Shown: positions 1,074-64,000 of the stretch, in pieces
Numbering within the stretch: the stretch's first letter is position 1
How the letters are laid out: each line of letters begins with the position of its first letter
NCBI GenBank assembly: GCA_038889075.1
Contig: JAWAHS010000001.1
Span: forward strand, 151,667 to 215,666
DNA length: 64,000 bases
DNA from: Ignisphaera sp.
GTDB taxonomy: Archaea; Thermoproteota; Thermoprotei_A; Sulfolobales; Ignisphaeraceae
Direction: 5' to 3'
The notes under the pieces: model-generated
The model's database searches: none
Seen by the model: only the letters and a program-made list of their open reading frames with translations
Told to the model about the DNA's origin: nothing
Position numbers and translations under genes: made by a program

Positions 1074-1697
1074 CTAGCTTTTTTGCAATAGAAGGGTCTT
1101 TATTTTTAGTGATCTTACCTTCTCCTCCCGTTCCATTTCGTCAAATTTCATTGTTAGATACATTATAGTTTTTAGTATCCTTGGTATTAGAACTTTTTCA
1201 AGCATTGTAACAATTCTCCTTACTCTCGCTATTTCTTTTCCTAAATTCAGCAACTCCTTCTCATATTCTGCTAATCTCGTAATAGTCTCTAAAACTTCTC
1301 TTCTTTTATTTTGAATAGTACTGACCTCTATTGGTAAAATGCTAGAACTTTCTGGAACCATAGCTAATTCTATCATTGGTGCAGGAACTCCCATAACATT
1401 TCTAACCCCAGCTATAATACTAATACCTTTAGCTGTTGCTAGTGAGGTTACATCCAGATACTCCAAGCCGTGGAGTGAAAGAGCTATATAATAGTAATAG
1501 TATATTTCATTCAATAGCTTGTTGAGTTTAGATCTCGTATCATAAGCCTTTTTAAGCACAACGTAAAACTCCTGTAAAAGGAATGTTAGTCTATCTCGTA
1601 GAATTCTATGAAGTCTTCTGGCTATTGTCAATCTTCTTCTAAGTCTGATTAACTCTATTTTTGTTGGTCTTGGTAATCTTAGGATTTCGCTACTCAT
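1074..1697 (-). CDS. atpD: A/V-type ATP synthase subunit D
   Basis: [14 protein letters not shown]-terminus, RNVMGV, LEKVLIP; last gene of the ATPase operon. Confidence 0.95.
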
Positions 1698-3115
1698 TGG
1701 CTTGATACCTGTTTTCTGTATGCTGGGTGGTATTTTTTCATGGTCTCTGAACTTATCTGCCGCAACTCTTCTTCAGGTAGAATGGATAGGAGACTCCATG
1801 CTATATCTAGTGTTTCTTCAAAGGCTCTTCTTTCATGTTCACCTTGGCTAATAAATTTGGCTTCAAAATTATCAGCAAATTCTAGATACCTCCTATCCCT
1901 TGCAGTAAGGGATTCTGTACCTACTATTGTTATTAATTCTCTTAAATACTGTCCCTCTGCATATGCAGATATTAATTGTGCAAATACCTCTCTATGATCC
2001 TCTCTAGTTTTACCCGGTCCTATTCCCTCCTTCATGAGTCTTGACAGTGATAGGAATACATCTACAGGGGGATACACACCCTTACGCCACATATCTCTTG
2101 ACAGAACTATCTGCCCCTCTGTTATATAGCCAGTTAAATCTGGTATTGGATGAGTTATATCATCATCAGGCATAGTGAGTATAGGCATTATGGTCATACT
2201 ACCTTTCTGATCGATAACCCTACCAGCCCTTTCATACATTGTTGCTAAATCCGTATACATGTATCCAGGGTATCCTCTTCTGCCAGGTACCTCTTCTCTA
2301 GCAGCTGAGATCTCCTTTAATGCTTCACAGTAGTTGGTCATATCTGTTAATATTGTCAGCATATGCATACCATACCTCCATGCAAGGAATTCAGCCGCTG
2401 TTAGTGCAACTCTCGGGAGTGCAAGCTTTTCAACTGTTGACGCTGATGCAGGTGCTAGAAATGCTATGGTTCTATCCAGTGCACCCATAGACTTTAATTC
2501 ATTCAGGAAATACATGGCCTCTTCATGTGTAACCCCAATAGCGCCAAATACGACAGCAAATCTCTCACCAGAACCCCTAACAGCTGCCTGTCTCACTATT
2601 TGCATGGCAATTCTATTATGAGGTAGCCCAGAACCACTGAAGATTGGTAGTTTCTGGCCTCTGACTAATGTCAGGAGGCCATCAATAACAGAAATTCCGG
2701 TCTCTATAGGTTCAGACGGCGGAATTCTTAGGGCTGGATTTAGCGGTTCTCCATGTATATCTAGGTAATCCTCCGGTACTATTGGAGGTCCGCCATCTAT
2801 TGGCCTTGCTAATCCATCAAATATTCTTCCAAGCATATCTGATGAAACTGGTATAGCTAGAGTCTCACCACGGAATTTAACAATAGTTTTACCTGGTGTA
2901 ACACCTAGGGAAGATCCGAATATCTGTATTAATGCTATATCTCTACTTACATCAACTACCTGGCCGAGCCTAGAATCGCCATCAACATCTATCTCTACAA
3001 GCTCACCATATCTGATACCACCCAAGGCTTTAACAAATATGAGAGAGCCTCTAACACCGGTAATTTGTCTACTCGACTTTGTGACAGCTAGTGTAGAGCT
3101 AGACATTTCAGCCAC
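1694..3115 (-). CDS. atpB: A/V-type ATP synthase subunit B
   Basis: [54 protein letters not shown]. Confidence 0.98.
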
Positions 3116-4886
3116 CCAATAGATCTAGGAATTCCCTCTTCATGGTTTCTAAAAGCTCAGGAATAAATTTACTCTTTAGTTCACCAATAGCATAGAACTT
3201 CATTCTGGACAGCATATACCTGCTCTTCAATTCCCTTATTCTGGCTACAGGAACACCCTTAGACAATGCTTCTTGAGCCAATCTGTAAAACTCCATTATA
3301 GCTTCCATCATTACAATACCCTTCTCAGGAGGTGAATATGCATCAACGGGATTGAGGGCACTTTGTTGCAGAAAGTCCTCCCTTATAATCCTAGCCATTT
3401 CGAGCAAAAGCTTATCCTCCTCGGGTAGTGCCTCAGGACCTACTAATCTAACTATATCACTTAGCTCGGCTTCCCTCTGCAAAATCTTGAGCATGGTTTC
3501 TCTATTTCTACTCCAGCTTCCCTCAGAAATTTTATCCCAATACAGCTTAACGAAATCTATGTATAGGCTGTAGCTTTGAAGCCAGTTGATGGCAGGAAAA
3601 TGCCTCCTTGTAGCTAATCCATAGTCCAATGCATAAAAGCTCTGAATATATCTAACGGTACCTCTAACCACAGGTTCGCTAAAATCTCCACCTGGTGGTG
3701 AAACTGCGCCAAATATAGTTAGGCTTCCAAAGCGCTCTGGATTTCCAAGCGCTACAATTCTACCTGCTCTCTCATAGAATTCGGCCAGTCTACTAGATAG
3801 GTAGGCTGGAAATCCCTCCTCACCAGGCATCTCCTCCATCCTACCACTTATCTCCCTCATAGCCTCAGCCCATCTACTTGTTGAATCGGCGACCATTATT
3901 ACATCATAGCCCATATCCCTAAAATACTCGCCTATAGTAACACCAAGAAATACGCTAGTTTCTCTAGCAGCAACAGGCATATTACTTGTATTAGCAATGA
4001 ATACAGATCTCTCCATCATTGGTCTACCCCTTCTAGTATCCATAAGCTTGAGGAAACTTGTTAGAGCATCCGACATTTCATTTCCCCGCTCGCCACATCC
4101 AACAAATATAGCTATATCAGCATGGCTCCACTTAGTCAATTCCTGTAGCAATACTGTTTTACCTGTGCCAAAGCCACCGGGAACAGCAGCTTTACCACCC
4201 TTAGCAATAGGGAATACATGGTCTATAACTCTTATACCTGTGATCAAAGGCTCGATGGGGTTTAGCTTCTCTCTGTATGGTCTAGGTCTTCTAATAGGCC
4301 AAATCTGATACAGCTTAACATCATAGCTATTGCCATCAGATTCAATAATGGCAATGGTATCTTCAATTCCGTAGTCACCATCGTCTGCCACCCACTTTAA
4401 CTTACCATGAATATTGGGGGGAATCATAATCTTATGGAGAACCAGCGGGGTTTCCTGTACATATCCTATTACATCGCCAGAGCTGATCTTATCCCCTAGA
4501 TTCAACTTTTTCTCTCTCCTAAAATTCCACTTGGCATTTCTACTTAGAGCATTCAGCTTAACCCCCCTCCTGATAAATATACTCCTAGTCAGTATACCAA
4601 TCTCCTTCTCAGGGCGTTGAAGACCGTCGTATATGGAACCTATAAGTCCTGGGCCAAGCTCAGCTGATAAGGGTCTTCCTGAAGCAACAACTTTTTCACC
4701 TACAGTAAGCCCTGTTGTCTCCTCATAAACTTGTATATAGATCTTATCACCACGGATAGCAATAACCTCACCTATAAGCCCCTCTTCACCAACATATACA
4801 ACTTCGTACATCATAATTCTGCCGAGACCTTCAGCCACTATTAATGGACCTGCAATCCTATATATGCGACCAGTAGTGGTAGACAT
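3108..4886 (-). CDS. atpA: A/V-type ATP synthase catalytic subunit A
   Basis: P-loop [32 protein letters not shown] at 4886 preferred; the GTG at 4895 overlaps the GAGGTG ribosome-binding site. No intein. Confidence 0.98.
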
Positions 4887-4995
4887 TAACCGCACCTCTA
4901 TATCTGAGATGCCAGATGCATTATTATATGTTTTTGAAACGTGGGAGGCCTATTATAGAACATGGATATCATTTCCAGACGACACCCCATTTATA

Positions 4996-5343
4996 CTATT
5001 CTAGGTAAACTTCATATCCAATAAATCTGCGAATTATATCCCTATAGAAAGCTTTTGGAGACTCGAGAATATCGTCAAGAGTATCAGGAATGGCGATGAT
5101 TGATGGGTAGATGTGAATGTTTTGGAGGTATGTAGTTAAATCGATACCTTTAACGAGACTCCTCTGTACAATGATAACTCCTAGATCTCTATCTTCAATA
5201 AGCTTTGTCAGGGCATTTAAAATCTCGCTCTGATTCTCAATAATGAATATAGCATCGATACCTAAAATTTTCATAAGGGGGGCGAGTTCCCTTCTTACAA
5301 TGGCTGCTATTTTAGATTTAGATTGTGAATGCAAGGGTATCAC
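4996..5343 (-). CDS. atpF: A/V-type ATP synthase subunit F
   Basis: 115 aa, KIAAI...LGID...DLGVIIV...IIRRFIG pattern; position between C and A. Confidence 0.85.
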   Translation of the reverse strand: MIPLHSQSKSKIAAIVRRELAPLMKILGIDAIFIIENQSEILNALTKLIEDRDLGVIIVQRSLVKGIDLTTYLQNIHIYPSIIAIPDTLDDILESPKAFYRDIIRRFIGYEVYLE

Positions 5344-6215
5344 CTAATCCTATATCTACCTCTTATCGAACTCACTAGTGGATGTACATATCTAATCATC
5401 TTCTGCTCATAGTATCTGTTTATTAGATATAGTGTGAGTTGATCAATTAATTGATAGGAGGGGTAGAGAAGGTTCTTAATAGCATCATATACATACGCTG
5501 CTTCGTATATTTCTAAAGTATCTAGGGATTCTCTAATAAATTTTTCAATATTTTCTAAAATTGTATGGAGTTTATATACAATTAATTGATTAGAAAGATT
5601 TAGTTTCTGATTGATAAATTTAACAAACTCATTATAACTATATTCTGCTAATGCTAAGATGTGAGAATTTTTTAAATAAATAAAGTATCTTATTGATGTG
5701 AAAATTGCTATAGCATTCAAAGCATTTATATAGGATTCTAGATATGCCCTATAAATCTTTTTAAGTATAGAGGCAGTTTTATCTATGTAGATCTCTAGAA
5801 GACATCTATAGGAGTAGTCTCTGCAGCACTGCTTATATTGAGGATCGTTTAATACATTGGTATACATGTATGTAGGTTGGGTAGTCTTCTTCGGGGTAGA
5901 AGATATCGCTAGGAGTTTTTCAAAATCATAAATCTCAAGAAATGTATAGAGATAGTACGAATATTCTTCAGGTAGAATGTTTCCTATATATTCAAATTCA
6001 CTTCTATATATATCAAAGATATATCTATCCAACTCATCGATACTACTAGCGGATAGAAGTTTTACAAAACTATTTCGAGCATCTTTTTCCAATAAAAGGC
6101 GACTATATTCTATGGCGGCATTTTTCGTTAAACCATCTATCAACTCTTCTAGCCTTGGCGGTTTAGCTAAATAGATGATTACCGTAGCCAGTGAAGCTTC
6201 GCGCGATAATTTCAT
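5340..6215 (-). CDS. atpC: A/V-type ATP synthase subunit C (divergent)
   Basis: Position between E and F with overlapping stop/start codons, helical, 291 aa; sequence motifs weak. Confidence 0.6.
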   Translation of the reverse strand: MKLSREASLATVIIYLAKPPRLEELIDGLTKNAAIEYSRLLLEKDARNSFVKLLSASSIDELDRYIFDIYRSEFEYIGNILPEEYSYYLYTFLEIYDFEKLLAISSTPKKTTQPTYMYTNVLNDPQYKQCCRDYSYRCLLEIYIDKTASILKKIYRAYLESYINALNAIAIFTSIRYFIYLKNSHILALAEYSYNEFVKFINQKLNLSNQLIVYKLHTILENIEKFIRESLDTLEIYEAAYVYDAIKNLLYPSYQLIDQLTLYLINRYYEQKMIRYVHPLVSSIRGRYRIR

Positions 6216-6814
6216 TGATAGATCTCCTTAACGAGATTTGGCAGCATTTTCTTTAAGATAATTGAAATTCTAGAGTCGTAACTATTATCTATAGATATAG
6301 TACCATCGGCCAATTCAAGAATTAAACCGCCGAGGATTCCCGTGGATTCCACGTTAATTACCTCAATGCCATATTTATTCCTAATATACTCCCTTAATTG
6401 ATTACTTAAATGAATGTCACGTTCAGAAATCTTAATTGCTACTTGGTTTACGATACCATAACTATGAAAGATATGTTGTAGAGCTTCATCGAGGAGTCTG
6501 AACAGTGATTGAAGCCTTGTTTCCATATCTAAGTTAATCAAGAAATTGATAATATTCTTCTCCATCTCCTTAATAATTCGATGTTTTACATCGTGTATTA
6601 TGAGTCTTGCATTCAGTTTTGCTTCAGCGATCTTGGCATCGTAATTCAATTCCTCTAATATTTTTCTTTTTTCATCCTCTATCCTATTTCTTTTTATCTT
6701 TTCAGCTTCCTCAATAATCCTTCTTGCCTCCTCCTCAGCCCTACTTACCCTACTTTCAGCCTCTTTAAGAGCTTTCTCCAATACAGCTTTTCTTAGCAGC
6801 TCTATAGATTCCAT
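6212..6814 (-). CDS. atpE: A/V-type ATP synthase subunit E
   Basis: Charged coiled-coil N-terminus; ILGGLILE...IDNSYDSR C-terminal motif. Confidence 0.9.
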   Translation of the reverse strand: MESIELLRKAVLEKALKEAESRVSRAEEEARRIIEEAEKIKRNRIEDEKRKILEELNYDAKIAEAKLNARLIIHDVKHRIIKEMEKNIINFLINLDMETRLQSLFRLLDEALQHIFHSYGIVNQVAIKISERDIHLSNQLREYIRNKYGIEVINVESTGILGGLILELADGTISIDNSYDSRISIILKKMLPNLVKEIYQ

Positions 6815-6818
6815 GGAT

Positions 6819-7325
6819 TCACCAACCAGCTACTATACTAAGCATTAATATTCCGAAGATCATGCCAAGTATTCCAAATAGTTCTTCATAAGCAGCTAAA
6901 ACTATTCCCAGACCGAAAATTCCACCCTTTGTCTTAATTAGTTGTGTAGCAGTATCTGCACAAACTTGTCCCTGCGTATAGGCACTAAATGCTTCAGCGA
7001 AACCTACAAATATAGATATACCAATAATGGCAAAACTTATGTTGAGAGGTATCAAATCGAGTTTTCCATACTTAGCTAGTATGCTTGGTAGGTAAACATT
7101 ATATGTCATGAACATAAATATGAAACCATACACCATAGCCTGAGTAGCAGGTAGAAATGAGAGAGCTAACACTTTTCCTCGTTGGATTGGATCCTCAGAT
7201 ATTACAGCTGTGCCCACAGAGGCAACCTTTCGGATACCTAGCGTTGAACCTATAACGGCTAGGCCTTCAGCTATTGCAGGAAATGTATACATTATAGCAC
7301 CCGTATCCATAATCTGATACACCAA
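6819..7325 (-). CDS. atpK: ATP synthase subunit K/c, duplicated four-helix (V-type-like) proteolipid
   Basis: 168 aa hydrophobic; hairpin 1 LPATQAMVYG, hairpin 2 SAYTQGQV...AAYEELFGILG, resembling Enterococcus NtpK. Confidence 0.9.
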   Translation of the reverse strand: MVYQIMDTGAIMYTFPAIAEGLAVIGSTLGIRKVASVGTAVISEDPIQRGKVLALSFLPATQAMVYGFIFMFMTYNVYLPSILAKYGKLDLIPLNISFAIIGISIFVGFAEAFSAYTQGQVCADTATQLIKTKGGIFGLGIVLAAYEELFGILGMIFGILMLSIVAGW

Positions 7326-7439
7326 TCTGATTTATCTTGACTCGGCTAAAAATAGTATAAGCCCTGCATTAAAAAGCTTATATACTAGTTATATAGATTA
7401 CTGTTACAACCTAAAACAATCATAGCTACCGTTTTTATA

Positions 7440-9395
7440 CTATCTCACACTTACACTTCCCAATACAATAGGTTCTATAGCTATTTTGACTGGCTGGATT
7501 CTTCTTCCAGCACCTTCAAGAAACTTTGATGATATTTCAAAGAGGCATAGCCTTAATGAATGTACGAATGGTCCTATTGCAGAGACTGCTAAATTGAATA
7601 GATGAAGTATGAAGGACATCAGTATTCCAGCAACCATTCCAACAATAATATTTGGCATTGTGAAAGCACCTGTTATAAAACCATTGAATATCTCTGCGAG
7701 CATCGCCGAACCCATGCCTATTCCAGCTATTCTTATAAATGAAAAGACATCACCAATTATTCCGAGAACGTCAAATAGCCATAATAGCGCACCGAGACCG
7801 TGTAGGGAAATGATTTTACCTATAATGATGATTGCTATAGAGGCTAAACTTATCCACAGACTATATTCGTAGAAAATTGGTATTACAGGAATATTTGCTC
7901 TAAAGTAACTATATAGATATGGTCTTAAATACTGAGCACCAGCAATCATAATAAGCACTATACCTACTTCCGATAAGAATCCACCTCTATCCTTCAATCT
8001 AAAGTTCTTTAGGGCTGCAAATACATGTGATATTAATACAAATATATAGCCTATAGTTATGCTCAGACCCATCATAGACATTAGATCTGAGTAGTCCAAG
8101 ATGCGCGGTATAGGTAGATGAGTACCTAGTAACGAACCTAGGAAGCTCTTAGATAAAATTCCCAAGATGATACAGCCTGCTGATGATATATAGAGAACTT
8201 GTTGAAGTCTTCTAAAGCCTAAGGCTTTTGGATTTTCAACAAATTTTGGTAGAACATACCTTGCTGCTAGGGCTAGACCTATACCATAACCAACATCAGC
8301 GAACATTAATGAGAAGAATAGAATGAATGAATAGGTGAGGAAGGGTGTCGGATCCCATTCGTTTGGCGATGGTATGCCATACATTTCGGTTATGATTTCA
8401 AACGGCTTGAATGGTTTAAGATTGTTAAAATCTACAGGTGGGTTTGGATCTACCTCATACATAGTGTACACTGGCAGTCCCTGTAAGATTTTTATTGCAC
8501 TATCTATTTTTGACTTTGGTATCCATCCTACTAGTGTTGTGAGATATTTTGAACTCAGTGTATTCTTCCATATCTCAATTTTCTTGTATTCGATATCTAG
8601 AAGTAGTTTAAGCATAGCAATTTCATTAATGTTTCTTTCTATAATATTCTCTATCCTAGATGTGACATTCGATATGTGTTGGCTTAAACTCTCTATTTCA
8701 ATATTTAATCTATTTAAAACGGCATCTAACTTGGTAATACCGTATTTCTCTACTACATTAAATATCCTTACATCTTGGGGGAGAGCTCTAAATAGCTCTT
8801 CATACCCTTTTAATGGTAGTAGAGCAGATATAGCAGCATAATTATCACCTTCAGCTTCAGCTATAGTGAGTAGGGCCTTGCTACGTATGAGATTTACTGA
8901 CTGTTTTGATGCAATAAAAGTCTCCACGGCATAGATAGAACCTCTATAATGAAGTATTGATGTATCGGCATTTGGATACTTCTCTAAAATTTTCTCGATT
9001 AGTTGTTTGATTAATAGTAGTATTTCAATACTTCTCTTCATATTCAATACCTCATTATTAAGCACTTCTATATCTGATAGAATGGATGAAAGGTTTGCAT
9101 ATACTCGTTTAATGCCTTCTCTTATATCTGTAGGAATCTCAGTTATTTCAATGGTTATAGGTTGTTTAATATATGAGGAGATCTCATTATATAATAGTTT
9201 AGCCCGCTCAATGAACCCTATGTACTCTTTTATCTCTCTTAATTCCCTTTCCTTAGACTCTTGCTGTATTGGTTCAAAAACTCCTAATCTAAATAATTTC
9301 TCAGTTATTTCACTTATGTACTCAGTAGGTGTAATTACATATACTTTGAAAGCTGTATCAGGATCACTTAGTATTAGAGATCTAAGACTGGACAT
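7440..9395 (-). CDS. atpI: A/V-type ATP synthase subunit I (a)
   Basis: YGIPSPNEWDPT, MFADVGYG, conserved Arg in FSFIRIAG, HSLRLCLFE. Confidence 0.95.
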   Translation of the reverse strand: MSSLRSLILSDPDTAFKVYVITPTEYISEITEKLFRLGVFEPIQQESKERELREIKEYIGFIERAKLLYNEISSYIKQPITIEITEIPTDIREGIKRVYANLSSILSDIEVLNNEVLNMKRSIEILLLIKQLIEKILEKYPNADTSILHYRGSIYAVETFIASKQSVNLIRSKALLTIAEAEGDNYAAISALLPLKGYEELFRALPQDVRIFNVVEKYGITKLDAVLNRLNIEIESLSQHISNVTSRIENIIERNINEIAMLKLLLDIEYKKIEIWKNTLSSKYLTTLVGWIPKSKIDSAIKILQGLPVYTMYEVDPNPPVDFNNLKPFKPFEIITEMYGIPSPNEWDPTPFLTYSFILFFSLMFADVGYGIGLALAARYVLPKFVENPKALGFRRLQQVLYISSAGCIILGILSKSFLGSLLGTHLPIPRILDYSDLMSMMGLSITIGYIFVLISHVFAALKNFRLKDRGGFLSEVGIVLIMIAGAQYLRPYLYSYFRANIPVIPIFYEYSLWISLASIAIIIIGKIISLHGLGALLWLFDVLGIIGDVFSFIRIAGIGMGSAMLAEIFNGFITGAFTMPNIIVGMVAGILMSFILHLFNLAVSAIGPFVHSLRLCLFEISSKFLEGAGRRIQPVKIAIEPIVLGSVSVR

Positions 9396-9405
9396 GATTT
9401 ACATC

Positions 9406-9723
9406 CTACTCAATCTCGATGCCTGCAACTATTGATGCAATTCTTTTTGCAATATTCTGGACAGATTTTTGAGCTTTACTCCATAAGAGTTCAGCTTCTT
9501 TTTTTGCATTGAGTATTATCTCCTTAACGTCTCTCTCTATCTTTTCTTCATATTCTCTTCTCCATCTTTCTAAATCATTACGGTAGCTATCATCAGATAG
9601 TATCTCATGTGCTCTTCTCTTAGCATCATCGATGATTTTCTGAACTTTCCTTTCAGCTTCATTGAGAATTTCCTCAGCCTCCTTCTCTATTTTAGAAATA
9701 ATATTGTCCGACATTATTATCAC
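9406..9723 (-). CDS. atpH: A-type ATP synthase subunit H (G)
   Basis: Short E/K-rich coiled coil, first gene of the operon. Confidence 0.75.
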   Translation of the reverse strand: MIIMSDNIISKIEKEAEEILNEAERKVQKIIDDAKRRAHEILSDDSYRNDLERWRREYEEKIERDVKEIILNAKKEAELLWSKAQKSVQNIAKRIASIVAGIEIE

Positions 9724-9858: not shown

Positions 9859-10758
9859 ATGTTAATAGGGATTTTAACCCAAAATCCTAATGGGTGGGCA
9901 TCGTCTAGACTTATAAAAGCTATTGAACTGTTAGGACATAGAGCATTTCCATTTAGATTTAGAGATGTCGTTACCCATATTGATGATGGGCTATTCAAAG
10001 TAATTGTAAATGATCTGGATATAGTTAGGGAGATCAATGCTATCATTGTGAGGCCTATTGGTAGATGTAGTCTTGAGTGGGCAATTTTTAGAATGGACTT
10101 GCTCTACGCCCTCCAAGACTACGGTTTAACAATAGTAAATAAACCACAGGCGATAGAGAGATGTGTAGATAAGTTTAGGGCACTATATCTCTTACAGCTT
10201 CGTGGGATTCCAGTACCGGAGACTATTGTGACAGAAAATGCTGCACTTGCACATGAATATTCAAAGCGTCTTAGGAATAGGGAAGTGGTTGTTAAGCCGA
10301 TATTTGGATCTAGGGGTCACGGTTCTACAAAGATAGTATTAAGCGATAGGGATGTTCTCTGGGAAGTGCTTCACGCAATGGCATTTACAAAGCATGTACT
10401 TTATGTCCAGAAGTTTTTACGCCATGGCGGCATGGATATAAGGGTCTTAGTTATAGGTGATAGAGTTATAGCATCTATGTATAGAGTTGCACCGAGAGGT
10501 ATGTGGAAAACCAATGTAGCACAGGGAGCCCAACCACTAGCCATAGAGAGGCTTAGCCCTGAAATTGAGGATATTGCAATAAGGTCAGCAAGAGCTGTAG
10601 AATGCGATGTAGCTGGGGTAGACATTGCTGTAGCTGATGGAAGGCCATATGTACTTGAGATTAATAGTCAGCCAGGGTGGAGAGGTCTTCAGAGCACTAC
10701 TGAAAGGGATATCGCATTGGAAATAGTAAAGTATGTTATAGAAAAAGCAAAAAAATAG
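9859..10758 (+). CDS. RimK-family ATP-grasp alpha-L-glutamate ligase, probably H4MPT:glutamate ligase (MptN-like)
   Basis: VVKPIFGSRG, DIRVLVIG, WKTNVAQG, GVDI, LEINSQPGW; convergent with mch. Confidence 0.8.
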   Translation: MLIGILTQNPNGWASSRLIKAIELLGHRAFPFRFRDVVTHIDDGLFKVIVNDLDIVREINAIIVRPIGRCSLEWAIFRMDLLYALQDYGLTIVNKPQAIERCVDKFRALYLLQLRGIPVPETIVTENAALAHEYSKRLRNREVVVKPIFGSRGHGSTKIVLSDRDVLWEVLHAMAFTKHVLYVQKFLRHGGMDIRVLVIGDRVIASMYRVAPRGMWKTNVAQGAQPLAIERLSPEIEDIAIRSARAVECDVAGVDIAVADGRPYVLEINSQPGWRGLQSTTERDIALEIVKYVIEKAKK

Positions 10759-10759: not shown

Positions 10760-11722
10760 TTAACCTAGACTTAAAGCTATAGAATTTTTAATAACACTAA
10801 TGTTTATGTAACCGGCCTTGAACGTTCTACCAGAGCTGACATTATTTACAGTAACCATAGCAGGTGCAAATACATTTGGATCAACCTTATAGAGAATCTC
10901 CTCGCCAAACTGCTTTACGAGAACTACAAATGATTTACCATAATCTCTAGAGGAAGAGCTGGGAGTTTTCTTCACATACTCCTCAAGTTTTGCATCATCT
11001 GGATAGCTAACTATATAGTACGTGGATCCTCCATAGAGTAACATATCGTTTGTTCTACCCATCATTACTAAGGGATCTGGGTGGAGAGGTGCTATGGGAC
11101 ATACGCCAAATCCGTATCTAATACACTTTATATCGAATCCTATTGTGTTAAATTTAAATATGCCAGTCTCAACTATCCTTGCACTCACCTGCACACTACC
11201 AGCTATACTATTTGGTGCTACCACCATAATATAGATATTTTTAGATTCAACACCGGTTTCATTACCGATATACTTTATTACATCTTCACTAGGCATTCTA
11301 CTCGTCTCTAGGACAAGGGCAGCTTCATCAGACTGTTCTGTATAGCCTATACTTTCAAGGAGTTTCCTAGGCTTTTTAGCAAGCACTCTTGCAGGTCCAC
11401 TACCATTAGCAAAGAAATCTCCTACCCTAATTCTCCAGCCAGCTAGCTGGGAAGCAATACACGATTCGATTGGATGGTCTGTCGATACAGCTACAGCAGG
11501 CAATACTATATCTTCAATAAGTAGGGGTGTTAGGGATACTGCGGCGAGTCCTCCAAGACAAACCTTGGAGACGACTATACCAGCATCTATACTGCCACTA
11601 GCCTTAACACCAGCATCAACTACTGTCGCACCTCCTATATTTAGGATCTCTACCTTAAGCTCGTCAGCCATATCAATACCCTTTTTAATTATGTCAACTG
11701 CAAGCTTATTCATAGGTTTCAC
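10760..11722 (-). CDS. mch: Methenyl-H4MPT cyclohydrolase
   Basis: DAGV...VCLGGL, STDHP, SQLAGW, GSGPAR, MGRTND, DPNVFAPA. Confidence 0.95.
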   Translation of the reverse strand: MKPMNKLAVDIIKKGIDMADELKVEILNIGGATVVDAGVKASGSIDAGIVVSKVCLGGLAAVSLTPLLIEDIVLPAVAVSTDHPIESCIASQLAGWRIRVGDFFANGSGPARVLAKKPRKLLESIGYTEQSDEAALVLETSRMPSEDVIKYIGNETGVESKNIYIMVVAPNSIAGSVQVSARIVETGIFKFNTIGFDIKCIRYGFGVCPIAPLHPDPLVMMGRTNDMLLYGGSTYYIVSYPDDAKLEEYVKKTPSSSSRDYGKSFVVLVKQFGEEILYKVDPNVFAPAMVTVNNVSSGRTFKAGYINISVIKNSIALSLG

Positions 11723-12600: not shown

Positions 12601-12601
12601 C

Positions 12602-14320: not shown

Positions 14321-14321
14321 T

Positions 14322-16064: not shown

Positions 16065-16067
16065 ATT

Positions 16068-16934: not shown

Positions 16935-16992
16935 ATACCTTCCCTAAGAACTATTTTGTACTAAAGTACTTAAATCTTAATGATATAACATG

Positions 16993-18774: not shown

Positions 18775-18808
18775 ATAATCATAACATACCATATTGTGAA
18801 GCAGGGTA

Positions 18809-48436: not shown

Positions 48437-48729
48437 GCTATTCGATGGGATCTGTAATACAACGGTTAGTTGAACGTCTTCAGCGTCGAGTAGAGTATAC
48501 ACTTGTCCTCAGTAAAGGATTCTACAATATGATAGTGGGTAAAATAATTAAAGCACACAATTGTATTGCCAGAGAAGATGTTGCTATAAAAATACTAAAA
48601 TCTATCGCACTATTCATACTGAGGCTTCAGTGCAGCTTAGAGGATGCATTATCAGCTACATCAATTTTATTTGAACTCTTCACATCTATTTCAATAATAC
48701 TTGTGATGGTGCTGGTATGGCATTTGTAG
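48433..48729 (+). CDS. Small membrane-anchored protein of the hydrogenase operon
   Basis: GTG overlaps the upstream TGA (GTGA); amphipathic helix plus one C-terminal TM; ORF track 48412-48729. Confidence 0.6.
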   Translation: MSYSMGSVIQRLVERLQRRVEYTLVLSKGFYNMIVGKIIKAHNCIAREDVAIKILKSIALFILRLQCSLEDALSATSILFELFTSISIILVMVLVWHL

Positions 48730-52319: not shown

Positions 52320-52576
52320 GGATAAGGATATCTCTATGTAGCATGTATTCCTATAGAGACCCACCTATACCTAGATCAAGGCACATCACTCCTATGATAA
52401 GCTTGTGTCATGAAGTAAGTGAAAGAATTATTGATAAACATGCATTGCCTGAAGATATTTTGGATTCCATTAATAGAGTTGGCTATGCAGATATATTTAA
52501 TGTTGAGAAAGCCAAGGTTCTTTTTGGAATTGAGCTTTCAGAAAATCAATATGTAAAGATAGTTCTCATCGAATAG
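52316..52576 (+). CDS. Hypothetical protein in the hydrogenase operon
   Basis: ATGA overlap with the small-subunit gene and abuts the next gene; no motif recognised. Confidence 0.6.
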   Translation: MRIRISLCSMYSYRDPPIPRSRHITPMISLCHEVSERIIDKHALPEDILDSINRVGYADIFNVEKAKVLFGIELSENQYVKIVLIE

Positions 52577-53599: not shown

Positions 53600-54116
53600 G
53601 GTGAGTATAATGAGTGGCATAGAATCGTCAACACCGGCTACGATGAGTTTTAGAAGACTTATAGACTATGATAAATGTATAGGCTGTGGAGTTTGTGAGG
53701 AAGTATGCAGATTTCTTCACGAGAATCGACCCCTTATTCTACTCTATAGAGTTGCTGAGGACGTCGATAGGCCGATATCATGCTTCCACTGTGCTAGAGC
53801 ACCATGTATAGCGGTATGTCCAACAAATGCTTTAAGCTATGATAGCCAGGGAGCAGTCACAGTATCCATTGCTAAATGTATTGGCTGTACATCCTGTATA
53901 GCAGCATGTCCGTTTGGAATACCTGAGCTACTGCCAATAGGACACATTACTAAATGTGATCTCTGTAAAAAACTTAGGGCAGAGAATTTAGAACCTGGAT
54001 GTATAGCTACATGTCCATCAGATGCAATTCTATGGGGATCCTCCGAATCAATAACAAAGATGATGCGTAAAAAACATCTCAAGAGAATTGTGAAGGCATA
54101 TAGTCTCTACATATAA
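53550..54116 (+). CDS. Four-cluster [4Fe-4S] protein (HycB/HydN-like), paralogue of 20016-20492
   Basis: CIGCGVCEEVC, CFHCARAPCIAVCP, CIGCTSCIAACPFG, KCDLC...PGCIATCP; true start probably near 53592-53610. Confidence 0.9.
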   Translation: MQLKILIYTSIEGGMHRVSIMSGIESSTPATMSFRRLIDYDKCIGCGVCEEVCRFLHENRPLILLYRVAEDVDRPISCFHCARAPCIAVCPTNALSYDSQGAVTVSIAKCIGCTSCIAACPFGIPELLPIGHITKCDLCKKLRAENLEPGCIATCPSDAILWGSSESITKMMRKKHLKRIVKAYSLYI

Positions 54117-54190: not shown

Positions 54191-54805
54191 TCAAATCCGA
54201 TTTGTATTAGGTTCAGACTCTTCCGTTTCTTCAATGCCTGTTTTGGATATTTCAAATAGTATCTTTTCATAGCCACCTGTCCTCCTACCCTTGTATCCAT
54301 ATATGGCTAAGATATTCCCCTTTACTACATCCCACTCCTCACCGCCAGAACCCATATTAACCTCTAGTATTTTTGAACCTGGAGGAAATACCCAATATAC
54401 CACATAGTTGTATTCAGGTACTTCAGACTCATAGAAATTCTCATACATATTTCTTCCCATCCTTATTGGGGCTCTAAACCTTACTGTGAAGACTATATAT
54501 GGTCTCTTCCTAGATTCTGCAAAACCTAGGTCTATCATGACCACACGTGGATATACCCTAACACCATTAACCATAACCCTTTCCTGATCTAGAAATCCTT
54601 GCATATTTGTCCAGAGTCTTGCTATCTCATCATTAAAAAGTTTTTCATCTTTCACAACAATGCTATAATACTCTAACGGATCATGGTAGTGGAATACTAA
54701 ATAGTACGCTATATAATCTATACTAACAAAGAATAGACCATGTGCATAGATCGGCCTTACCTGCTTACTCGCCTCCTCTAAAAATTTTGGGCTTACCATA
54801 ATCAA
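54191..54805 (-). CDS. Hypothetical protein (archaeal, function unknown)
   Basis: 204-aa ORF with normal codon usage, GGTG ribosome-binding site and TATA upstream. Confidence 0.75.
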   Translation of the reverse strand: MIMVSPKFLEEASKQVRPIYAHGLFFVSIDYIAYYLVFHYHDPLEYYSIVVKDEKLFNDEIARLWTNMQGFLDQERVMVNGVRVYPRVVMIDLGFAESRKRPYIVFTVRFRAPIRMGRNMYENFYESEVPEYNYVVYWVFPPGSKILEVNMGSGGEEWDVVKGNILAIYGYKGRRTGGYEKILFEISKTGIEETEESEPNTNRI

Positions 54806-55730: not shown

Positions 55731-56420
55731 GGCTACTCTTCTTAGATATCTTCTTGCTTCTTCCATATTTTCAGGACTTCCCGCTTTGTAGCAGAACCAT
55801 CAATCATAGCACTCGTATTGTTTCACCCTTTCTGCAGCCTTCCTGTACAGTTCGTGCTGGTGGTACAATAACTCTATCCCCTACAAGTTCATTATTTGGC
55901 CAGTTTGCTGGTATAGCTACCTTCTGTTTATCACTTGTTTGCATAGCAACGACCATTCTCAGAATTTCATCAATATTCCTACCTAGCTCTTGTGAATAGT
56001 AGAGTACGGGCCTGATCATACCATTAGGATCTACTATGAATACTACCCTAACTGTGTTTGCGTAGCTGACTGTGCGTGGAGCATTCCAAGCCTTAATGCC
56101 ACCTCTCCTCTAGGATCAGCTATTATTGGGAATGGTGTTTCTACATTTAGCTTCTCTTTTATCCACTCAACCCATTTTATATGACTAAATGTGTTATCAA
56201 CGCTGAGACCTAGAAGTTCAGTATCTAGCTTTTTAAAGTCTTCATGTCTCTTCGCAAAGGCTACAAAACTCTGTTGTACATACAGGTGTAGAGTCCGCTG
56301 ATGACTAAATATTACAAGCCGCCTACCTCTATAGTCATCAGGTAGGGTTCTTACTCCATGTGTTGTTTGGACGACCATCTTCGGCAACTCTCCACCTATT
56401 AATGGTATTGTGTCAGGCAT
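55731..56420 (-). pseudogene. Peroxiredoxin (Prx6/archaeal type) pseudogene
   Basis: Reconstructs to MPDTIPLIG...FSH(P)[11 protein letters not shown]...[11 protein letters not shown]...VFIVDP...[11 protein letters not shown]...YECYD*WFC...EEARRYLRR. Frameshifts near 56300, 56266, 56053 and 55840; in-frame TGA at 55800-55802. Confidence 0.9.
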
Positions 56421-56573
56421 ATCCAACCACTTATTTTAACAAATTGAATGCACCTTCTTTGGCCGCGTTACTATCGCTGTTCAGAACGAGGATTAACCGC
56501 TATAGAAACCGAGCTGTGCAGTATTATTTTAATTATTTTAGAAGATATTAATGGGAAAGTTAAGCCAGATGAA

Positions 56574-58160: not shown

Positions 58161-58367
58161 ATGTGTGAATCTGCAATATATTTAAGGAGTATCAGTGATG
58201 AGGAGCTTTTAACTAAAGATTTCGTGCTTATGGAGTTTAAGGAGAGTAGGTATGTGTTTACTGATATAGTTTGCAATAGAGTAGTTGTGGGTAATGTTGA
58301 AGCAGGGTATATTGATTTTACAGAGCATAGAGCTGCTTTGAGAAGATCTGGAAACCGAGGTAGCTAG
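58161..58367 (+). CDS. cooT: CooT-family nickel-binding protein (copy 2)
   Basis: MCESAIYL...IDFTEHR; directly upstream of cooC. Confidence 0.8.
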   Translation: MCESAIYLRSISDEELLTKDFVLMEFKESRYVFTDIVCNRVVVGNVEAGYIDFTEHRAALRRSGNRGS

Positions 58368-58370
58368 ACT

Positions 58371-59135
58371 ATGAAGATAGCTATCGTGGGTAAGGGTGGT
58401 GTTGGTAAGACAACTGTGGCTGCTGTATTGTCTCGTTTAATTGGTAGAAGAGGATACAGTGTTATCGCCATTGATGCAGATCCTAGTCTTAATCTTGCTC
58501 AAGCTCTTGGTATACCTAGGGAGGTTGCTAGTAAAGCTCCTACGCTCTTTGATGAGGAAGAGTTCGTAAAGTCTAGGACACTCCTACCTGGAGGAGCGTA
58601 TAGATTGAATCCTAAGGTTGATGATATTGTTGAAAGATTTGGTATAAGAGGTCCTGATAACGTTGTTTTGCTTAAACTTGGCGAGGTTAAACGAGGTGGA
58701 ACAAGATGTCTCTGTCCAGAATATGCTCTTTTAAGGGCACTGCTATCACATCTTGTATTGGGTAGAAAGGAGATCGTGGTACTCGATATGGTTGCAGGGT
58801 TAGAGCCTATGAGCAGGGGTGCTGCTAAGGGAGTTGATTACATGCTATGCGTTGTCGAACCAAGTATGAAAGCTATCGATGTAGCTCTACAAACGATGAA
58901 GCTTGCAGAAGATATAGAGGTTAGGAAATTCTTCATAGTTATAAATAAGGTGCGGTGTGATAGAGATGTAGATTATGTGGAAAAGGCTGTAGGAAGGGAT
59001 AGAGTTATAGCTGTTATACCATATGATGAGAGCGTTGCTGAAGCTGATAGAAGGGGGGTATCCGTATTGGACTACAATCCAGAGGCGCCTATAGTTGTAG
59101 CCGTAGAGAATTTGAGAGTGAAACTCACCAAGTAA
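58371..59135 (+). CDS. cooC: CODH/ACS nickel-insertion ATPase
   Basis: GKGGVGKT, DADP, CLC metal motif, DMVAGLE..SRG, NKVR. Confidence 0.92.
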   Translation: MKIAIVGKGGVGKTTVAAVLSRLIGRRGYSVIAIDADPSLNLAQALGIPREVASKAPTLFDEEEFVKSRTLLPGGAYRLNPKVDDIVERFGIRGPDNVVLLKLGEVKRGGTRCLCPEYALLRALLSHLVLGRKEIVVLDMVAGLEPMSRGAAKGVDYMLCVVEPSMKAIDVALQTMKLAEDIEVRKFFIVINKVRCDRDVDYVEKAVGRDRVIAVIPYDESVAEADRRGVSVLDYNPEAPIVVAVENLRVKLTK

Positions 59136-62195: not shown

Positions 62196-63833
62196 ATGCC
62201 TCTTAAAATATCTATAGTATCGCCTATCGAAGTTCCTGATGATATGGTAAAGATATTTAAAGTGCCTCCCCCACCCCCGAAGGCAATGTTTAGCGACATT
62301 CCTGTTGATGTTGGTCCGCAGTACGAGGGTCAGAGGGTTAGAGCACCGGAAATGTATGTAGAGTTGGGAGGTCCCAAGGTCAACCATAAGTTTGAGTTAT
62401 TCAGGGTCAGAGATCTCAATGAGATTGAGGATGGAGAGGTAATTGTTGTAGGCCCTGATGTAGGTGAACTTAAAGAGGGTAGCAGTAACCCATATGCAGT
62501 CATCATTGAAGCTGCTGGATCTAAGTTAGAAATGCAGGCTGAGGGAGTTCTGGAAAGGAGGCTTCACGAGTTTAGCAACTATATACAGGGATACATGCAT
62601 CTAAATCAAAGATATGATATATGGCTTAGAATCAGCAAGAGATCGTATCAGAAAGGGCTGAACTCGTTTAAGTATATTGGCACGGCGCTCTACAGGTTAT
62701 TCAAATCAGCGTTCCCAGTCATAGAGAAGATGAGGATAATATTTGTTACGGATCCAAAAACGGTTGAACTACTCTATGGTCAGGCGCTAAAAGTCTATGA
62801 TGAAAGGGATAGAAGGGCACTGGGTCTAAAAGATGAAGATGTAGATATGTTTTATTCGTGTAAGCTCTGCCAGTCCTTTGCACCAACACATGTATGCATA
62901 ATAACACCCGAAAGACCTTCGGCATGCGGAGCTATAACATGGCTTGATGCCAGAGTAGCAGCTTTAATTGATCCCAAGGGTCCTATTCAGCCCGTACCTA
63001 AGGGGAGAACTGTAGATCCTTTTGCAGGAGAGTATGAAGGGGCTAACGAAGTTGTAAAAAAGCTCTCCAGCGGCACTATACAGAGAATAAGACTCTATGC
63101 ACTGTTTGAATATCCACCAACTATATGTGGATGCTTTGAGATAGCAACCTTTTACATACCTGAGCTTGATGCTGTGGGGCTTGTTCATAGAGGATTTGCA
63201 GGGACTACACCAATAGGTCTTAGGTTTAGCCAGGTTGCTGATGCTGTTGGTGGTGGTAAGCAGGTTCCTGGTTTTCAGGGAATAGGACTCCTCTATCTTA
63301 GGAGTAGAAAGCTGTTTCAAGCTGATGGTGGATGGAATAGAATTGTTTGGATGCCTTCAGAGCTCAAACAGAGAATTCTAGATGCTATTCCTCCCGAGTT
63401 AAGGGATAGGATAGCAACGGAGAAAGAGGCTACGGATGTAGAATCCCTTAGAAAATTCTTGATGGAGAAAAAACACCCTATAGTGGAGAAGCTTTTAGCG
63501 AAGGAGGCTAAGAAGGAAGAGGCTAGGGAGGAGAAGCCCGTTGAAAAGACCAAGGAGGCAGAGATGTCAACTGTAACTCCACTACAGCCCTCCATGCCAT
63601 CGATGCAGGTTCCGCATCCACAGCAAGTTATCGCTACGGTAGCCTCTACACAGCAGACAGCTACGGCAACAGTAATACCAACATCAGCTGGAAATATAGT
63701 TGTAACGGTTTCCATACCTATGCAGATGCAACAAACCCAGACAAGTAGTAGGGGGATAAGCATAACTTTAAAGGGTGTTAAGATCAAGGCTGAGAAGCTG
63801 GTCATAAAAAAGGTGGAAGGTGGAGGGAAGTGA
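62196..63833 (+). CDS. cdhC: ACDS complex beta subunit (acetyl-CoA synthase)
   Basis: GPQYEGQRVR, VELGGP, EGVLERRLH, CKLCQSFAPTHVC, CGAI, CGCFE, GGWNRIVWMP. Confidence 0.97.
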   Translation: MPLKISIVSPIEVPDDMVKIFKVPPPPPKAMFSDIPVDVGPQYEGQRVRAPEMYVELGGPKVNHKFELFRVRDLNEIEDGEVIVVGPDVGELKEGSSNPYAVIIEAAGSKLEMQAEGVLERRLHEFSNYIQGYMHLNQRYDIWLRISKRSYQKGLNSFKYIGTALYRLFKSAFPVIEKMRIIFVTDPKTVELLYGQALKVYDERDRRALGLKDEDVDMFYSCKLCQSFAPTHVCIITPERPSACGAITWLDARVAALIDPKGPIQPVPKGRTVDPFAGEYEGANEVVKKLSSGTIQRIRLYALFEYPPTICGCFEIATFYIPELDAVGLVHRGFAGTTPIGLRFSQVADAVGGGKQVPGFQGIGLLYLRSRKLFQADGGWNRIVWMPSELKQRILDAIPPELRDRIATEKEATDVESLRKFLMEKKHPIVEKLLAKEAKKEEAREEKPVEKTKEAEMSTVTPLQPSMPSMQVPHPQQVIATVASTQQTATATVIPTSAGNIVVTVSIPMQMQQTQTSSRGISITLKGVKIKAEKLVIKKVEGGGK

Positions 63834-64000
63834 GTGGAGAGAAAAAAGGTGAAAAGCAGGAGTCAGAGGCAGGTAGACAAGCGAGTATATACAATCTTTT
63901 GGCAAAGCTTGCAGAGGCTCTTATCAACGGCGTTGTAGAGCTCTACAATGTTGAGATCGAAGCGGATGAATTAACTCTTATATTACCTGAAACAGTAGCC
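63830..64000 (+). CDS. cdhD: Probable ACDS delta subunit (corrinoid Fe-S protein small subunit), N-terminal fragment
   Basis: GTG overlapping the cdhC TGA; open to the window end: MSGEKK...LLAKLAEALINGVVELYNVEIEADELTLILP; assigned mainly by position. Confidence 0.6.
   Translation, partial: MSGEKKGEKQESEAGRQASIYNLLAKLAEALINGVVELYNVEIEADELTLILPETVA

Follow-up and report, generated by a model that had tools for sequence, protein, structure and literature searches.

The genome of an uncultured Ignisphaera species of hot springs (G000) contains a large group of genes for a Wood-Ljungdahl pathway of the methanofuran/tetrahydromethanopterin (H4MPT)/F420 type, which was analyzed in a stretch of 64,000 nucleotides (the window; positions 151667-215666 of C1, a 446-kb contig) and in its flanks. 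This is a genuine chromosomal supercluster that encodes a complete pathway without methanogenesis. To judge from the sequence, it probably serves mainly in the reductive direction, as a reversible one-carbon (C1) module for mixotrophic acetogenesis, and a role as a stand-alone lithoautotrophic engine is improbable. The genome assembly, of metagenome type, amounts to 1.95 Mb in 25 contigs interrupted by N gaps and is rated 99.58% complete, with 1.05% contamination. The 65 non-overlapping open reading frames (ORFs) of the window were scanned against NCBIfam, and those left without an assignment were then scanned against Pfam; scores are given below as whole-protein bits versus the curated NCBIfam cut-off. 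Comparisons cover the 26 species genomes (in 6 genera) of the GTDB family and the 351 genomes of the GTDB class.

The methyl branch is encoded on the reverse strand by an operon (ftr-mtd-fwdD/B-fwdA-fwdC-mch, 10760..17928) in which every gene exceeds its curated cut-off: ftr (402 vs. 297 bits), mtd (388.9 vs. 297), fwdB (530.5 vs. 327.8), fwdA (734.9 vs. 392.75), fwdC (211.8 vs. 130.65) and mch (372 vs. 228.8). FwdB is fused at its N-terminus to a FwdD-like part that scores 105.5 bits, under the cut-off of an exception model (175), and Mtd matches the F420-dependent model. Two divergent genes at 40597..42575 encode an MtrH-family methyltransferase (reverse strand; NF002142, 352.9 vs. 287) and F420-dependent Mer (forward strand; NF002619, 450.7 vs. 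276). [quoted passage not shown] The matches of cdhA (1126.9 vs. 781.3) and cdhC (612 vs. 355.95) are strong, and that of cdhB is weak on NCBIfam (30.1 vs. 101.2) and exceeds only the Pfam CO_dh cut-off (36.9 vs. 21). Beyond the window (C1:215792-221289) follow cdhD (325.8 vs. 252.9), which starts approximately 130 bp past its end, cdhE (NF003195, 554.6 vs. 306), and then genes for a corrinoid activase resembling AcsV and for another CooC-like ATPase; all four genes are intact. FwdA-D, Ftr, Mch, Mtd, Mer and CdhABCDE, by which membership in the methanofuran/H4MPT form of the pathway was judged, were thus all found, and the catalytic genes are intact and single-copy in this genome. An earlier note on this DNA, made from the letters of the window, had listed these gene classes along with others described below, and the scans found all of them in place except cdhD, which it had put inside the window; its provision that cdhDE might be missing or broken is answered by the intact genes downstream.

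Upstream of cdhA, an ORF of 68 codons (58161-58367) and a gene for a CooC-type nickel-insertion ATPase of the CbiA/MinD type together occupy 58161..59135 on the forward strand; the ATPase gene keeps this place in most of 74 related loci. The presence of cooC, which the earlier note had reported, is borne out; the cooT that it had placed beside it is best called CooT-like, with a score of 22.7 bits to PF10133, under the Pfam cut-off of 27. Also on the forward strand (21393..24612) are a gene for a fused alpha+beta ADP-forming acyl/acetyl-CoA synthetase of 715 amino acids (acd), the alpha domain of which exceeds its cut-off (TIGR02717, 608.5 vs. 567.15), and a gene for a protein with DRTGG (E value 8.8e-29) and AAA_26 domains, similar to the N-terminal portion of Pta. 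The same pair adjoins the cdh genes in another genome of the genus (G014) and in three further loci (L011-L013).

Genome-wide searches (E<=0.001) for markers of other metabolisms agree with a non-methanogenic pathway, as the earlier note had proposed. McrA had no match in G000 nor in any of the 351 class genomes, while both control methanogens were detected; MtrA and DsrA likewise had no match in G000 (MtrB-G were not searched one by one). The accompanying statement that hdr is absent applies to the window only, as genes of the Hdr/Mvh type are present on another contig, C8 (locus L080, 8970-14580), in a row: hdrC-like, hdrB-like (with two CCG domains), an hdrA-mvhD fusion, mvhG-like and mvhA-like. 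In the MvhA-like protein, an assembly gap (Ns) conceals the NiFe motif of the C-terminus. The same contig carries a GTP cyclohydrolase of the MptA type and other H4MPT-related genes.

The cluster was compared by tblastn of 75 proteins (from the window and its downstream flank) with stretches of four other genomes of the genus. One of these, G016, has 66 of the 75 proteins and is collinear all the way from the ATP synthase genes to the ribosomal ones; its stretch lacks the aquaporin, DUF2193, MfnD-like, GltD-like and peroxiredoxin-fragment genes, two junk-like ORFs and two PP-loop genes. Another, G017, has 64 of the 75 proteins within one 76-kb stretch, with the cdh operon relocated. Gene order is looser in further genomes: G014 groups acd, cdh, the cofactor genes, mch-fwd-ftr and the hydrogenase without ATP synthase, mer, mtrH, mtd or hyp genes at that place; G012 has its cdh operon 115 kb from the rest and retains the MtrH-like gene; and in G011 and G004, CdhA, FwdA and the hydrogenase large subunit are encoded on three different contigs. 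The metagenome type of the assembly, with its 25 contigs and N gaps, leaves room for an artefact of assembly or binning, by which methanogen-like or Bathyarchaeia-like DNA would have been joined to a Thermoprotei genome; such an artefact is nevertheless the least credible of the explanations considered, given that the gene order is equal in the assemblies of two other species. A 46,989-nucleotide contig from another sequencing run, possibly from the same source sample, spans the 20 kb tested with 23 differences; the tetranucleotide composition is continuous, the 10-kb correlation of the cluster with the genome being r = 0.91-0.976 (genome median 0.954, 5th percentile 0.875); and the best matches of the ribosomal and ATP synthase genes that this 446-kb contig also carries are within the genus. 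The contig is therefore not chimeric, a possibility that the earlier note had raised. Its description of an almost uninterrupted block was too strong, since genes for an aquaporin, a DUF2193 protein, a split peroxiredoxin, two PP-loop proteins and further unassigned ORFs intervene.

CdhA and FwdA exceed their cut-offs in one and the same set of 15 genomes among the 26 of the family, namely 14 of 17 in the genus (including G000) and one of a second genus, and CdhA is present in 24 of the 351 class genomes. The F420-dependent part of the pathway is much rarer: Mtd, Mer and CofD are each present in the same four family genomes (G000, G007, G016 and G017), and a search with the Mer protein as query found it in nine class genomes, comprising those four, three that belong to a single genus of a second family (67-70% identity) and two from a third (62-68%). 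Compact clusters of a similar kind occur in these two other families, for example a 26-kb cluster in G341 (mptN-mch-fwd-mtd-ftr-cofE-frhB-like-mtrH-like-mer-cooC-cdhABCDE-acsV-cooC). A scan of species-representative genomes for CdhA yielded 74 loci, of which the closest (79-90% identity) are titled Ignisphaera sp., Desulfurococcaceae archaeon and Thermoprotei archaeon, in accordance with the Thermoprotei-like host that the earlier note had surmised; next are Thermofilaceae, Bathyarchaeia, Korarchaeia-like and Geothermarchaeales loci (57-66%), and Methanosarcinaceae follow at 45-47%. In a quick maximum likelihood tree of 60 of the 75 rows (15 partial sequences were dropped), rooted at the midpoint and supported by the Shimodaira-Hasegawa-like approximate likelihood ratio test (SH-aLRT) only, CdhA of the window falls inside an 11-row clade titled Ignisphaera, Desulfurococcaceae, Thermosphaera and Thermoprotei (SH-aLRT 100), which joins three more loci titled Thermoproteota (100) and then Thermofilaceae and other Thermoproteota (90), with Bathyarchaeia apart. 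By this placement the enzyme looks native to Thermoproteota and not freshly acquired from methanogens.

The patchy spread of the pathway (CdhA in 24 and Mer in nine of the 351 class genomes), and a closed genome of the same genus without any of it, might suggest that a mobile genomic island, acquired recently, had carried the pathway and its energy machinery into a heterotrophic lineage. Such an origin is improbable on several grounds besides the grouping of CdhA with other Thermoproteota in the quick tree. The window contains no tRNA gene and no Rfam match (tRNA and Rfam scans), no integrase or transposase is found among its scanned ORFs, and its composition matches that of the genome; the modules are scattered over contigs in other species of the genus. 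The flanks of the cluster are a cobalt transporter of the energy-coupling factor (ECF) type upstream of the window and ribosomal and translation genes downstream of cdhDE-acsV-cooC, and in the closed genome without the pathway 350 kb separate the two flanking markers, ATP synthase and the ribosomal L10 gene, which leaves no clean insertion site. The features sought as signs of an island (integrase or tRNA borders, deviant composition, a clean insertion site) are therefore lacking, and the supercluster is better regarded as chromosomal, within which an older transfer of the Mtd/Mer/F420 module inside the order may have occurred.

The largest operon of the window (42603..52576, forward strand) consists of 17 genes identified by NCBIfam and Pfam and encodes an Mrp-linked group-4 [NiFe] hydrogenase. 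Its first part comprises mrpF, mrpG, mbhD, mrpB, mrpC, mrpE, two genes for antiporter subunits of the MrpD/NuoLMN type and an ORF of 105 codons; the remainder encodes a NuoH-like subunit, a large subunit in which NuoC-like and NuoD-like parts are fused (49574-51292), NuoI-like and NuoB-like subunits and a protein of 86 amino acids. The assignment to the Mrp-linked group 4 follows from the Mrp antiporter and the NuoB-, NuoH- and NuoI-like subunits in a single operon. The large subunit (572 amino acids) carries both NiFe CxxC pairs (RICGICGFVHS and DPCFSCTDR), and its best relative of solved structure is HycE of the Escherichia coli formate hydrogenlyase (FHL; 7z0s_E, 427 bits), followed by MbhL of Pyrococcus furiosus (6cfw_L, 277 bits). 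A closer ortholog of the large subunit (48-85% identity) is encoded by the majority of the family's genomes, some of them in genera that lack the pathway; the three pathway-free members of the genus and the only genome of genus g3 have just paralogs of 36-41% identity. Thus, this is an accessory hydrogenase that often but not always accompanies the pathway. The counterpart of those 36-41% matches, which are the sole kind in genus members without Wood-Ljungdahl genes, is a second complete Mrp-Mbh of G000 on contig C2 (L104, 10426-18627), with an unfused large subunit and intact NiFe motifs.

Immediately after the hydrogenase operon, 52577..54116 on the forward strand encodes a short GltD-like NAD(P)-binding flavoprotein (52577-53599; NF009409, 279.4 bits with a cut-off of 343) and a polyferredoxin of the HycB/CooF type (Fer4_11). 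This pair trails the hydrogenase in G014, G012 and G017 also, and the polyferredoxin alone does so in G016; three more GltD-like paralogs are present in G000. It is possible that the two proteins are an electron-input module of the hydrogenase, tying in NAD(P)H. Hydrogenase maturation genes hypF (TIGR00143, 729.5 vs. 466.1), hypC (TIGR00074, 37.6 with a cut-off of 48) and hypE (TIGR02124, 338.4 vs. 251.6) are located at 36226..40274 on the forward strand; the window shows no hypD, hypA or hypB, at which no genome-wide search was aimed. A further electron-transfer set (18016..20492, forward strand) comprises cofE, a gene for an FrhB/FpoF-like F420-binding iron-sulfur flavoprotein (18862-20013) and one for another HycB/CooF-type polyferredoxin (20016-20492). 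The flavoprotein combines FrhB_FdhB_N and FrhB_FdhB_C domains with an N-terminal 2x[4Fe-4S] domain, has its best PDB matches in 8rja_E and FrhB (6qii_B), and is encoded beside cofE in every F420-bearing cluster inspected. By its domains it is, with the polyferredoxin, a candidate ferredoxin:F420 oxidoreductase.

At the opposite end of the window, on the reverse strand (1074..9723), is the operon of an A-type ATP synthase (H, I, K, E, probable C, F, A, B, D), with NCBIfam matches for D, B, A, F, E, K, I and H; the ORF at 5340-6215 has no match to a hidden Markov model and is named subunit C from its position only. One match each for atpA, atpB and atpI in G000 indicates the sole ATP synthase of the genome, AtpA is present in pathway-free relatives (G003 and G010), and in other species ATP synthase is on different contigs. 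It is consequently an adjacent housekeeping enzyme and not specific to the pathway, which leaves little of the earlier proposal that the cluster has energy-conservation machinery of its own. Nor is the cluster the self-contained module that was proposed, because the Hdr/Mvh set, the second Mrp-Mbh, Fae and a corrinoid methyltransferase set are encoded elsewhere, and an Fo synthase was not found. The Fae gene is on C2 (L122, 4054-12959; 247.8 vs. 118 bits), adjoining an ECF operon (S, fused AA' and T-like components), and approximately 3-7 kb from it are genes for a corrinoid protein (MtgC/MtbC-like), a weakly matched MtaA/CmuA-like methyltransferase and a transporter of the major facilitator superfamily. 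This corrinoid/methyltransferase set could provide the MtrH-like enzyme with methyl groups.

Cofactor biosynthesis genes are dispersed among these operons. For F420, cofE (258.8 vs. 180.65), cofD (TIGR01819, 282 vs. 257.45) and cofC (TIGR03552, 111.9 vs. 105) exceed their cut-offs. The latter two share the interval 26997..31164 with mfnE and mfnF, all on the reverse strand, and with a gene on the forward strand for a HisA/HisF-related protein; the other matches in this interval are to TIGR03123 (308 vs. 244.1) and TIGR00734 (159.7, cut-off 179.85). The methanofuran biosynthesis genes mfnB, mfnE and mfnF match their families below the equivalog cut-offs; the mfnB-like gene is at 20510..21256 on the reverse strand (NF002575, 179.3 bits, cut-off 304). 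Two ATP-grasp ligases are MptN-like, a glutamate ligase for the H4MPT tail (9859..10758, forward strand; NF040720, 239.4 bits, cut-off 350; TIGR00768 RimK family, 182.5 vs. 143.4), and MfnD-like (34904..36109, reverse strand; a partial match to NF040722 with an E value of 2.7e-19, and PF02655). A second protein with the F420_ligase (CofE) fold (24618..25511, reverse strand; PF01996, E value 2.8e-10) is also present, beside MptN-like and MfnD-like ligases, in G014 and G012, both of which are without CofD. It may add glutamates to methanofuran or H4MPT and not to F420.

The F420 genes of the cluster lead to no obvious source of the F420 chromophore. CofH had no match in G000 and none above cut-off among the 26 family genomes, the sole trace being a 20-bit radical-SAM match in G017, and CofG had no match in G000, G007, G016 or G017. 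As no Fo synthase was found, the F420 precursor is apparently imported. Lumazine synthase, detected in 14 of 14 control genomes, had no match in G000, which by that marker is unable to make riboflavin or the pyrimidine precursor of Fo (8-hydroxy-5-deazariboflavin). Between the second cofE-like gene and cofD, two polytopic membrane proteins, P0006 and P0007, are encoded on the reverse strand, and their ESM Atlas neighbours are EcfT/CbiQ proteins and ECF S components. P0006 (25533..26273) is by its Atlas neighbours a probable ECF T component, with feature scores of 0.92-0.93 to CbiQ/EcfT clusters and a template modelling (TM) score of 0.72 to an EcfT cluster; it has no Pfam match, its AlphaFold2 (AF2) model is poor (predicted local distance difference test score, pLDDT, of 43.5 on 6 sequences), and it is 34% identical to the T-like gene product beside EcfAA' on C2. 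P0007 (26390..26992, 200 amino acids) is a RibU-like S component by its AF2 model (pLDDT 88.4 from a 15-sequence alignment) and by fold searches: the top 5 Foldseek matches in the PDB are all RibU (TMq 0.72, TMt 0.83, E value 2.9e-5), and in a VIA-align comparison of all against representatives RibU scored Z 20.4 and 19.5, with a root-mean-square deviation of 2.1-2.2 A over 164-168 residues, other S components reaching 12.7 at most. P0007 has no Pfam match even at E<=10, neither to PF12822 nor to PF07155.

Orthologs of P0007 (69-76% identity) were found only in G016, G007 and G017, in each case beside cofD. These four F420 genomes also carry a 43-44% identical paralog, which in G000 sits on C2 with the fused EcfAA' ATPase and the T-like gene, and the rest of the genus has a single paralog of 34-38% identity. 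In two genomes of the second family (G159 and G160), cofC-cofD is followed by a complete ECF operon (T, A', A, S) and then by ftr-mtd-fwd. The T component of this operon matches PF02361 (61.6 bits), there are two ATPases, and the S component matches PF12822 (37 vs. 30.7); the cofD-linked S component of G159 is 30% identical to P0007 over 113 residues, and the T components of G000 and G159 gave no significant alignment. It is quite possible, short of probable, that the Mtd and Mer steps run on a salvaged F420 precursor and that P0007, with its own T component, imports Fo, from which F420 would probably be built by CofC, CofD and CofE. Fo as the substrate of P0007 is suggested by gene neighbourhood and co-occurrence only, and since the four F420 genomes are one clade, the co-occurrence of P0007 with CofD, Mtd and Mer counts as a single event. 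No described Fo importer or Fo salvage was met in literature searches, and the words "uptake", "salvage" and "scaveng" do not occur in a 2021 review of F420 (PMC8498797). If the proposal is right, P0007 is the first candidate Fo transporter as far as these searches reach, and a core pathway of energy and carbon metabolism depends on deazaflavin released by neighbouring organisms. A need for Fo and riboflavin may partly explain resistance to cultivation, and would be useful to know in enriching high-temperature archaeal acetogens.

In the proposed scheme, low-potential ferredoxin would be the hub of electron flow, used directly by Fwd and CODH, and the FrhB/FpoF-like flavoprotein and polyferredoxin would shuttle electrons between ferredoxin and F420 for Mtd and Mer, enzymes that require F420H2. 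The Mrp-linked hydrogenase would interconvert reduced ferredoxin and H2 while moving ions, and the resulting gradient would be used by the cell's single ATP synthase. Acd would make one ATP per acetate from acetyl-CoA, and the MtrH-like enzyme, with the corrinoid protein encoded on C2, would feed methyl groups in at the level of CH3-H4MPT. The supercluster would thus provide a cell that ferments or grows mixotrophically with an electron sink and with extra ATP, converting CO2, CO or methyl groups to acetate. Mixotrophic acetogenesis is rated the likeliest use on account of the sugar and glycerol genes, the apparent need for imported vitamins, the linkage of Acd to cdh, and the energetics discussed for Bathyarchaeia in passages of Loh et al. 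2021 (PMC7886697), according to which a fully hydrogen-driven supply of ferredoxin would consume the ATP gained. The heterotrophic genes in G000 include those for fucose isomerase, FGGY kinases, glycerol dehydrogenase and thiolase.

Two other uses of the pathway were weighed. H2-driven fixation of CO2, in which Hdr/Mvh bifurcation or the reversed Mrp-hydrogenase would reduce ferredoxin and acetyl-CoA would go to biomass, is consistent with the completeness of the pathway and with the Hdr/Mvh set on C8, and a lithoautotrophic role of this kind was proposed in main-text passages of Berghuis et al. 2019 (PNAS; PMC6421429), where the enzymes of the dicarboxylate/4-hydroxybutyrate cycle are reported missing in Ignisphaera. 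We regard it as unlikely because Acd is tightly linked to this cluster, and to cdh in other species, which points to acetate formation with a gain of ATP; because no heterodisulfide partner of Hdr turned up (no search was aimed at one); because an apparent need for imported riboflavin and, probably, Fo is unlike a self-sufficient autotroph; and because the energetics would be tight if both ferredoxins came from an ion-driven hydrogenase, as the same passages on Bathyarchaeia suggest (PMC7886697). Somewhat less likely again is oxidative, hydrogenogenic use, by which CO (through CdhA), methyl groups (through the MtrH-like enzyme and reversed Mer, Mtd, Mch, Ftr and Fwd) or acetyl-CoA would be converted to CO2 and H2 evolution by the Mrp-linked hydrogenase would build an ion gradient for ATP synthase. 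The large subunit nearest to HycE of FHL, the polyferredoxins of the HycB/CooF type, the position of the cdh operon approximately 6-7 kb downstream of the hydrogenase (approximately 4 kb in G016), the MtrH-like gene here with a corrinoid protein encoded elsewhere, and the lack of an alternative terminal reductase among those tested (DsrA) would all suit it; against these stand the facts that no monofunctional CooS was found in G000, that the only formate-dehydrogenase-like match besides FwdB is a molybdopterin oxidoreductase of 677 amino acids far below cut-off, that the hydrogenase is also present in family members without the pathway, and that oxidation of acetate to H2 is thermodynamically hard without a partner organism.

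Several observations weigh against acetogenesis by the pathway as outlined, or against parts of it. The Hdr/Mvh-type hydrogenase on C8 would suit H2-driven reduction of ferredoxin and hence lithoautotrophy, and the HycE-like large subunit and CooF-like ferredoxin near cdh resemble H2-evolving systems driven by CO or formate. Among full-length models, the acyl-CoA synthetase best matches 4-hydroxybutyrate-CoA ligase, with 702.8 bits under a cut-off of 1300, so that its substrate is ambiguous, and P0007 may simply carry riboflavin. Eleven of the 15 family genomes that have both CdhA and FwdA lack matches to Mtd, Mer and CofD; the pathway as drawn is therefore valid only for the four-species subgroup, and in the other 11 genomes the methyl branch would, by gene content, either end at Mch or use other enzymes, for example ones independent of F420. 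The remaining point concerns contigs of an RNA library that are approximately 99% identical to the window: one of 7,666 nucleotides covers 12000-17938 (fwdC to ftr), and others lie over 18119-20401 (cofE-frhB-like-polyferredoxin), 21419-24469 (acd-DRTGG) and parts of cofD, mfnE and the aquaporin gene. This agrees with expression in situ, but as assembled contigs of one library they are no proof of transcription, strand or level, and they leave 24673-26600 uncovered, being silent on expression of the transporter genes.

Other genes of the window have less evident connections to the pathway. A MIP-family aquaporin-like channel and a 517-amino-acid protein of the DUF2193 family (31494..33902, reverse strand; NCBIfam and Pfam) are encoded as a pair that recurs near Wood-Ljungdahl clusters in three genomes of two families, with identities of 89% and 94% in G017 (C1:29793-32212) and of 76% and 77% in G341 (C5:13153-15497). 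These identities exceed those of most neighbouring genes, and the pair is absent from the collinear stretch of G016. A sequence search gave no PDB relative of the DUF2193 protein. Among the RNA-library contigs, that of the MIP channel has by far the highest depth. A conserved protein of 204 amino acids (54191..54805, reverse strand), encoded between the polyferredoxin of the hydrogenase and cooC and at the same position in G016, L005 and L010, has no family match and only a chance match in a PDB search (E value 0.07). Next is a split peroxiredoxin gene on the reverse strand (55804..56426; AhpC-TSA at 56043-56426 and 1-cysPrx_C at 55804-56019, in two frames), a probable pseudogene outside the pathway. 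Around it, from 54.8 to 56.0 kb, there are only junk-like ORFs, and L010 has at the same position a 79% match to its N-terminal part. Just upstream of cooT/cooC, on the reverse strand (56574-57985), two genes encode PP-loop ATPase-like proteins, one asparagine-synthase-like and one Dph6-like of the TTX_0299 family (267.6 vs. 250 bits), which have no counterpart in the inspected stretches of four relatives. Neither Pfam nor NCBIfam matched the ORFs at 5340-6215, 25533-26273, 26390-26992, 48412-48729, 52316-52576, 54191-54805, 55435-55710 and 55673-55999, of which 55435-55710 and 55673-55999 look like chance ORFs within a degraded stretch.

The combination of genes in the supercluster resembles several known systems. 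In Archaeoglobus, Fwd, Ftr, Mch, Mtd, Mer and Cdh operate with F420 and a module of the FqoF/FpoF type, and MtrH homologues are known as methyl-corrinoid:H4MPT methyltransferases. The pathway of Archaeoglobus is coupled to sulfate reduction and to a quinone-linked Fqo complex, whereas here there is no DsrA match and the partner is an H2-linked Mrp-hydrogenase. The closest published likeness is to Ignisphaera itself, so that the novelty implied by the earlier note is out of date: passages of Berghuis et al. 2019 (PMC6421429) describe several Ignisphaera metagenome-assembled genomes (MAGs) with all genes of the Wood-Ljungdahl pathway, Fae, HdrAB, MtrH and Ehb-like hydrogenase genes and without Mcr, and propose Wood-Ljungdahl carbon fixation in Crenarchaeota. 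Those MAGs bear the same lineage label and support the same claim of a pathway without Mcr, and other papers on Ignisphaera, in the parts that concern it, treat their bins as fermenters or merely cite that study. The non-methanogenic H4MPT Wood-Ljungdahl pathway of Ignisphaera-like Thermoprotei has thus been in print since 2019, and the window is a well-assembled example of it.

The supercluster, Acd, the subset of genomes with Mtd, Mer and F420 genes, and the missing Fo synthase were not met in main-text passages of the 2019 study, the supplements of which may list genes. What appears new is the arrangement of pathway, hydrogenase, Acd and cofactor genes as one supercluster of approximately 65 kb in three species; the restriction of the F420-dependent half of the methyl branch to just four of the 15 pathway-bearing family genomes and nine of the 351 class genomes; and the apparent inability of those four F420 genomes to make the F420 chromophore, for which the RibU-like gene beside cofD offers a testable hypothesis of import.

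The acetogenic Bathyarchaeia of termite guts, as described in passages of the 2021 paper (PMC7886697), are alike in having an H4MPT pathway, an ADP-forming Acd, an energy-converting group-4 hydrogenase, an FrhB that lacks FrhAG, and MtrH accompanied by a corrinoid protein, and mixotrophic acetogenesis as an electron sink was proposed for them as well. By the same passages, their hydrogenase is an 11-subunit Fpo-like complex, whereas that of the window is linked to Mrp subunits and has a fused large subunit resembling HycE; their Mtd is nearer to an NADH-dependent type, whereas that of the window matches the F420-dependent model; their MAGs are reported to encode F420 biosynthesis, whereas Fo synthase was not found here; and the phylum differs.

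Compared with hydrogenases of solved structure, the large subunit aligns with HycE (7z0s) across the fused NuoC-like and NuoD-like parts, so that the catalytic subunit is HycE-like, and the Mrp module matches that of the Mrp-Mbh of P. furiosus (6cfw). The complex would accordingly be a hybrid, in which the catalytic subunit resembles HycE, the membrane arm is of the Mrp type, and a GltD-like flavoprotein and a polyferredoxin are added; neither a formate dehydrogenase nor CooS is encoded adjacent to it. P0007, finally, has the same fold as RibU (5kbw, 3p5n), to which it is a far better match than to other S components, but it is only 19-22% identical to RibU in sequence, and it is a second paralog limited to the F420 genomes and encoded next to cofD.

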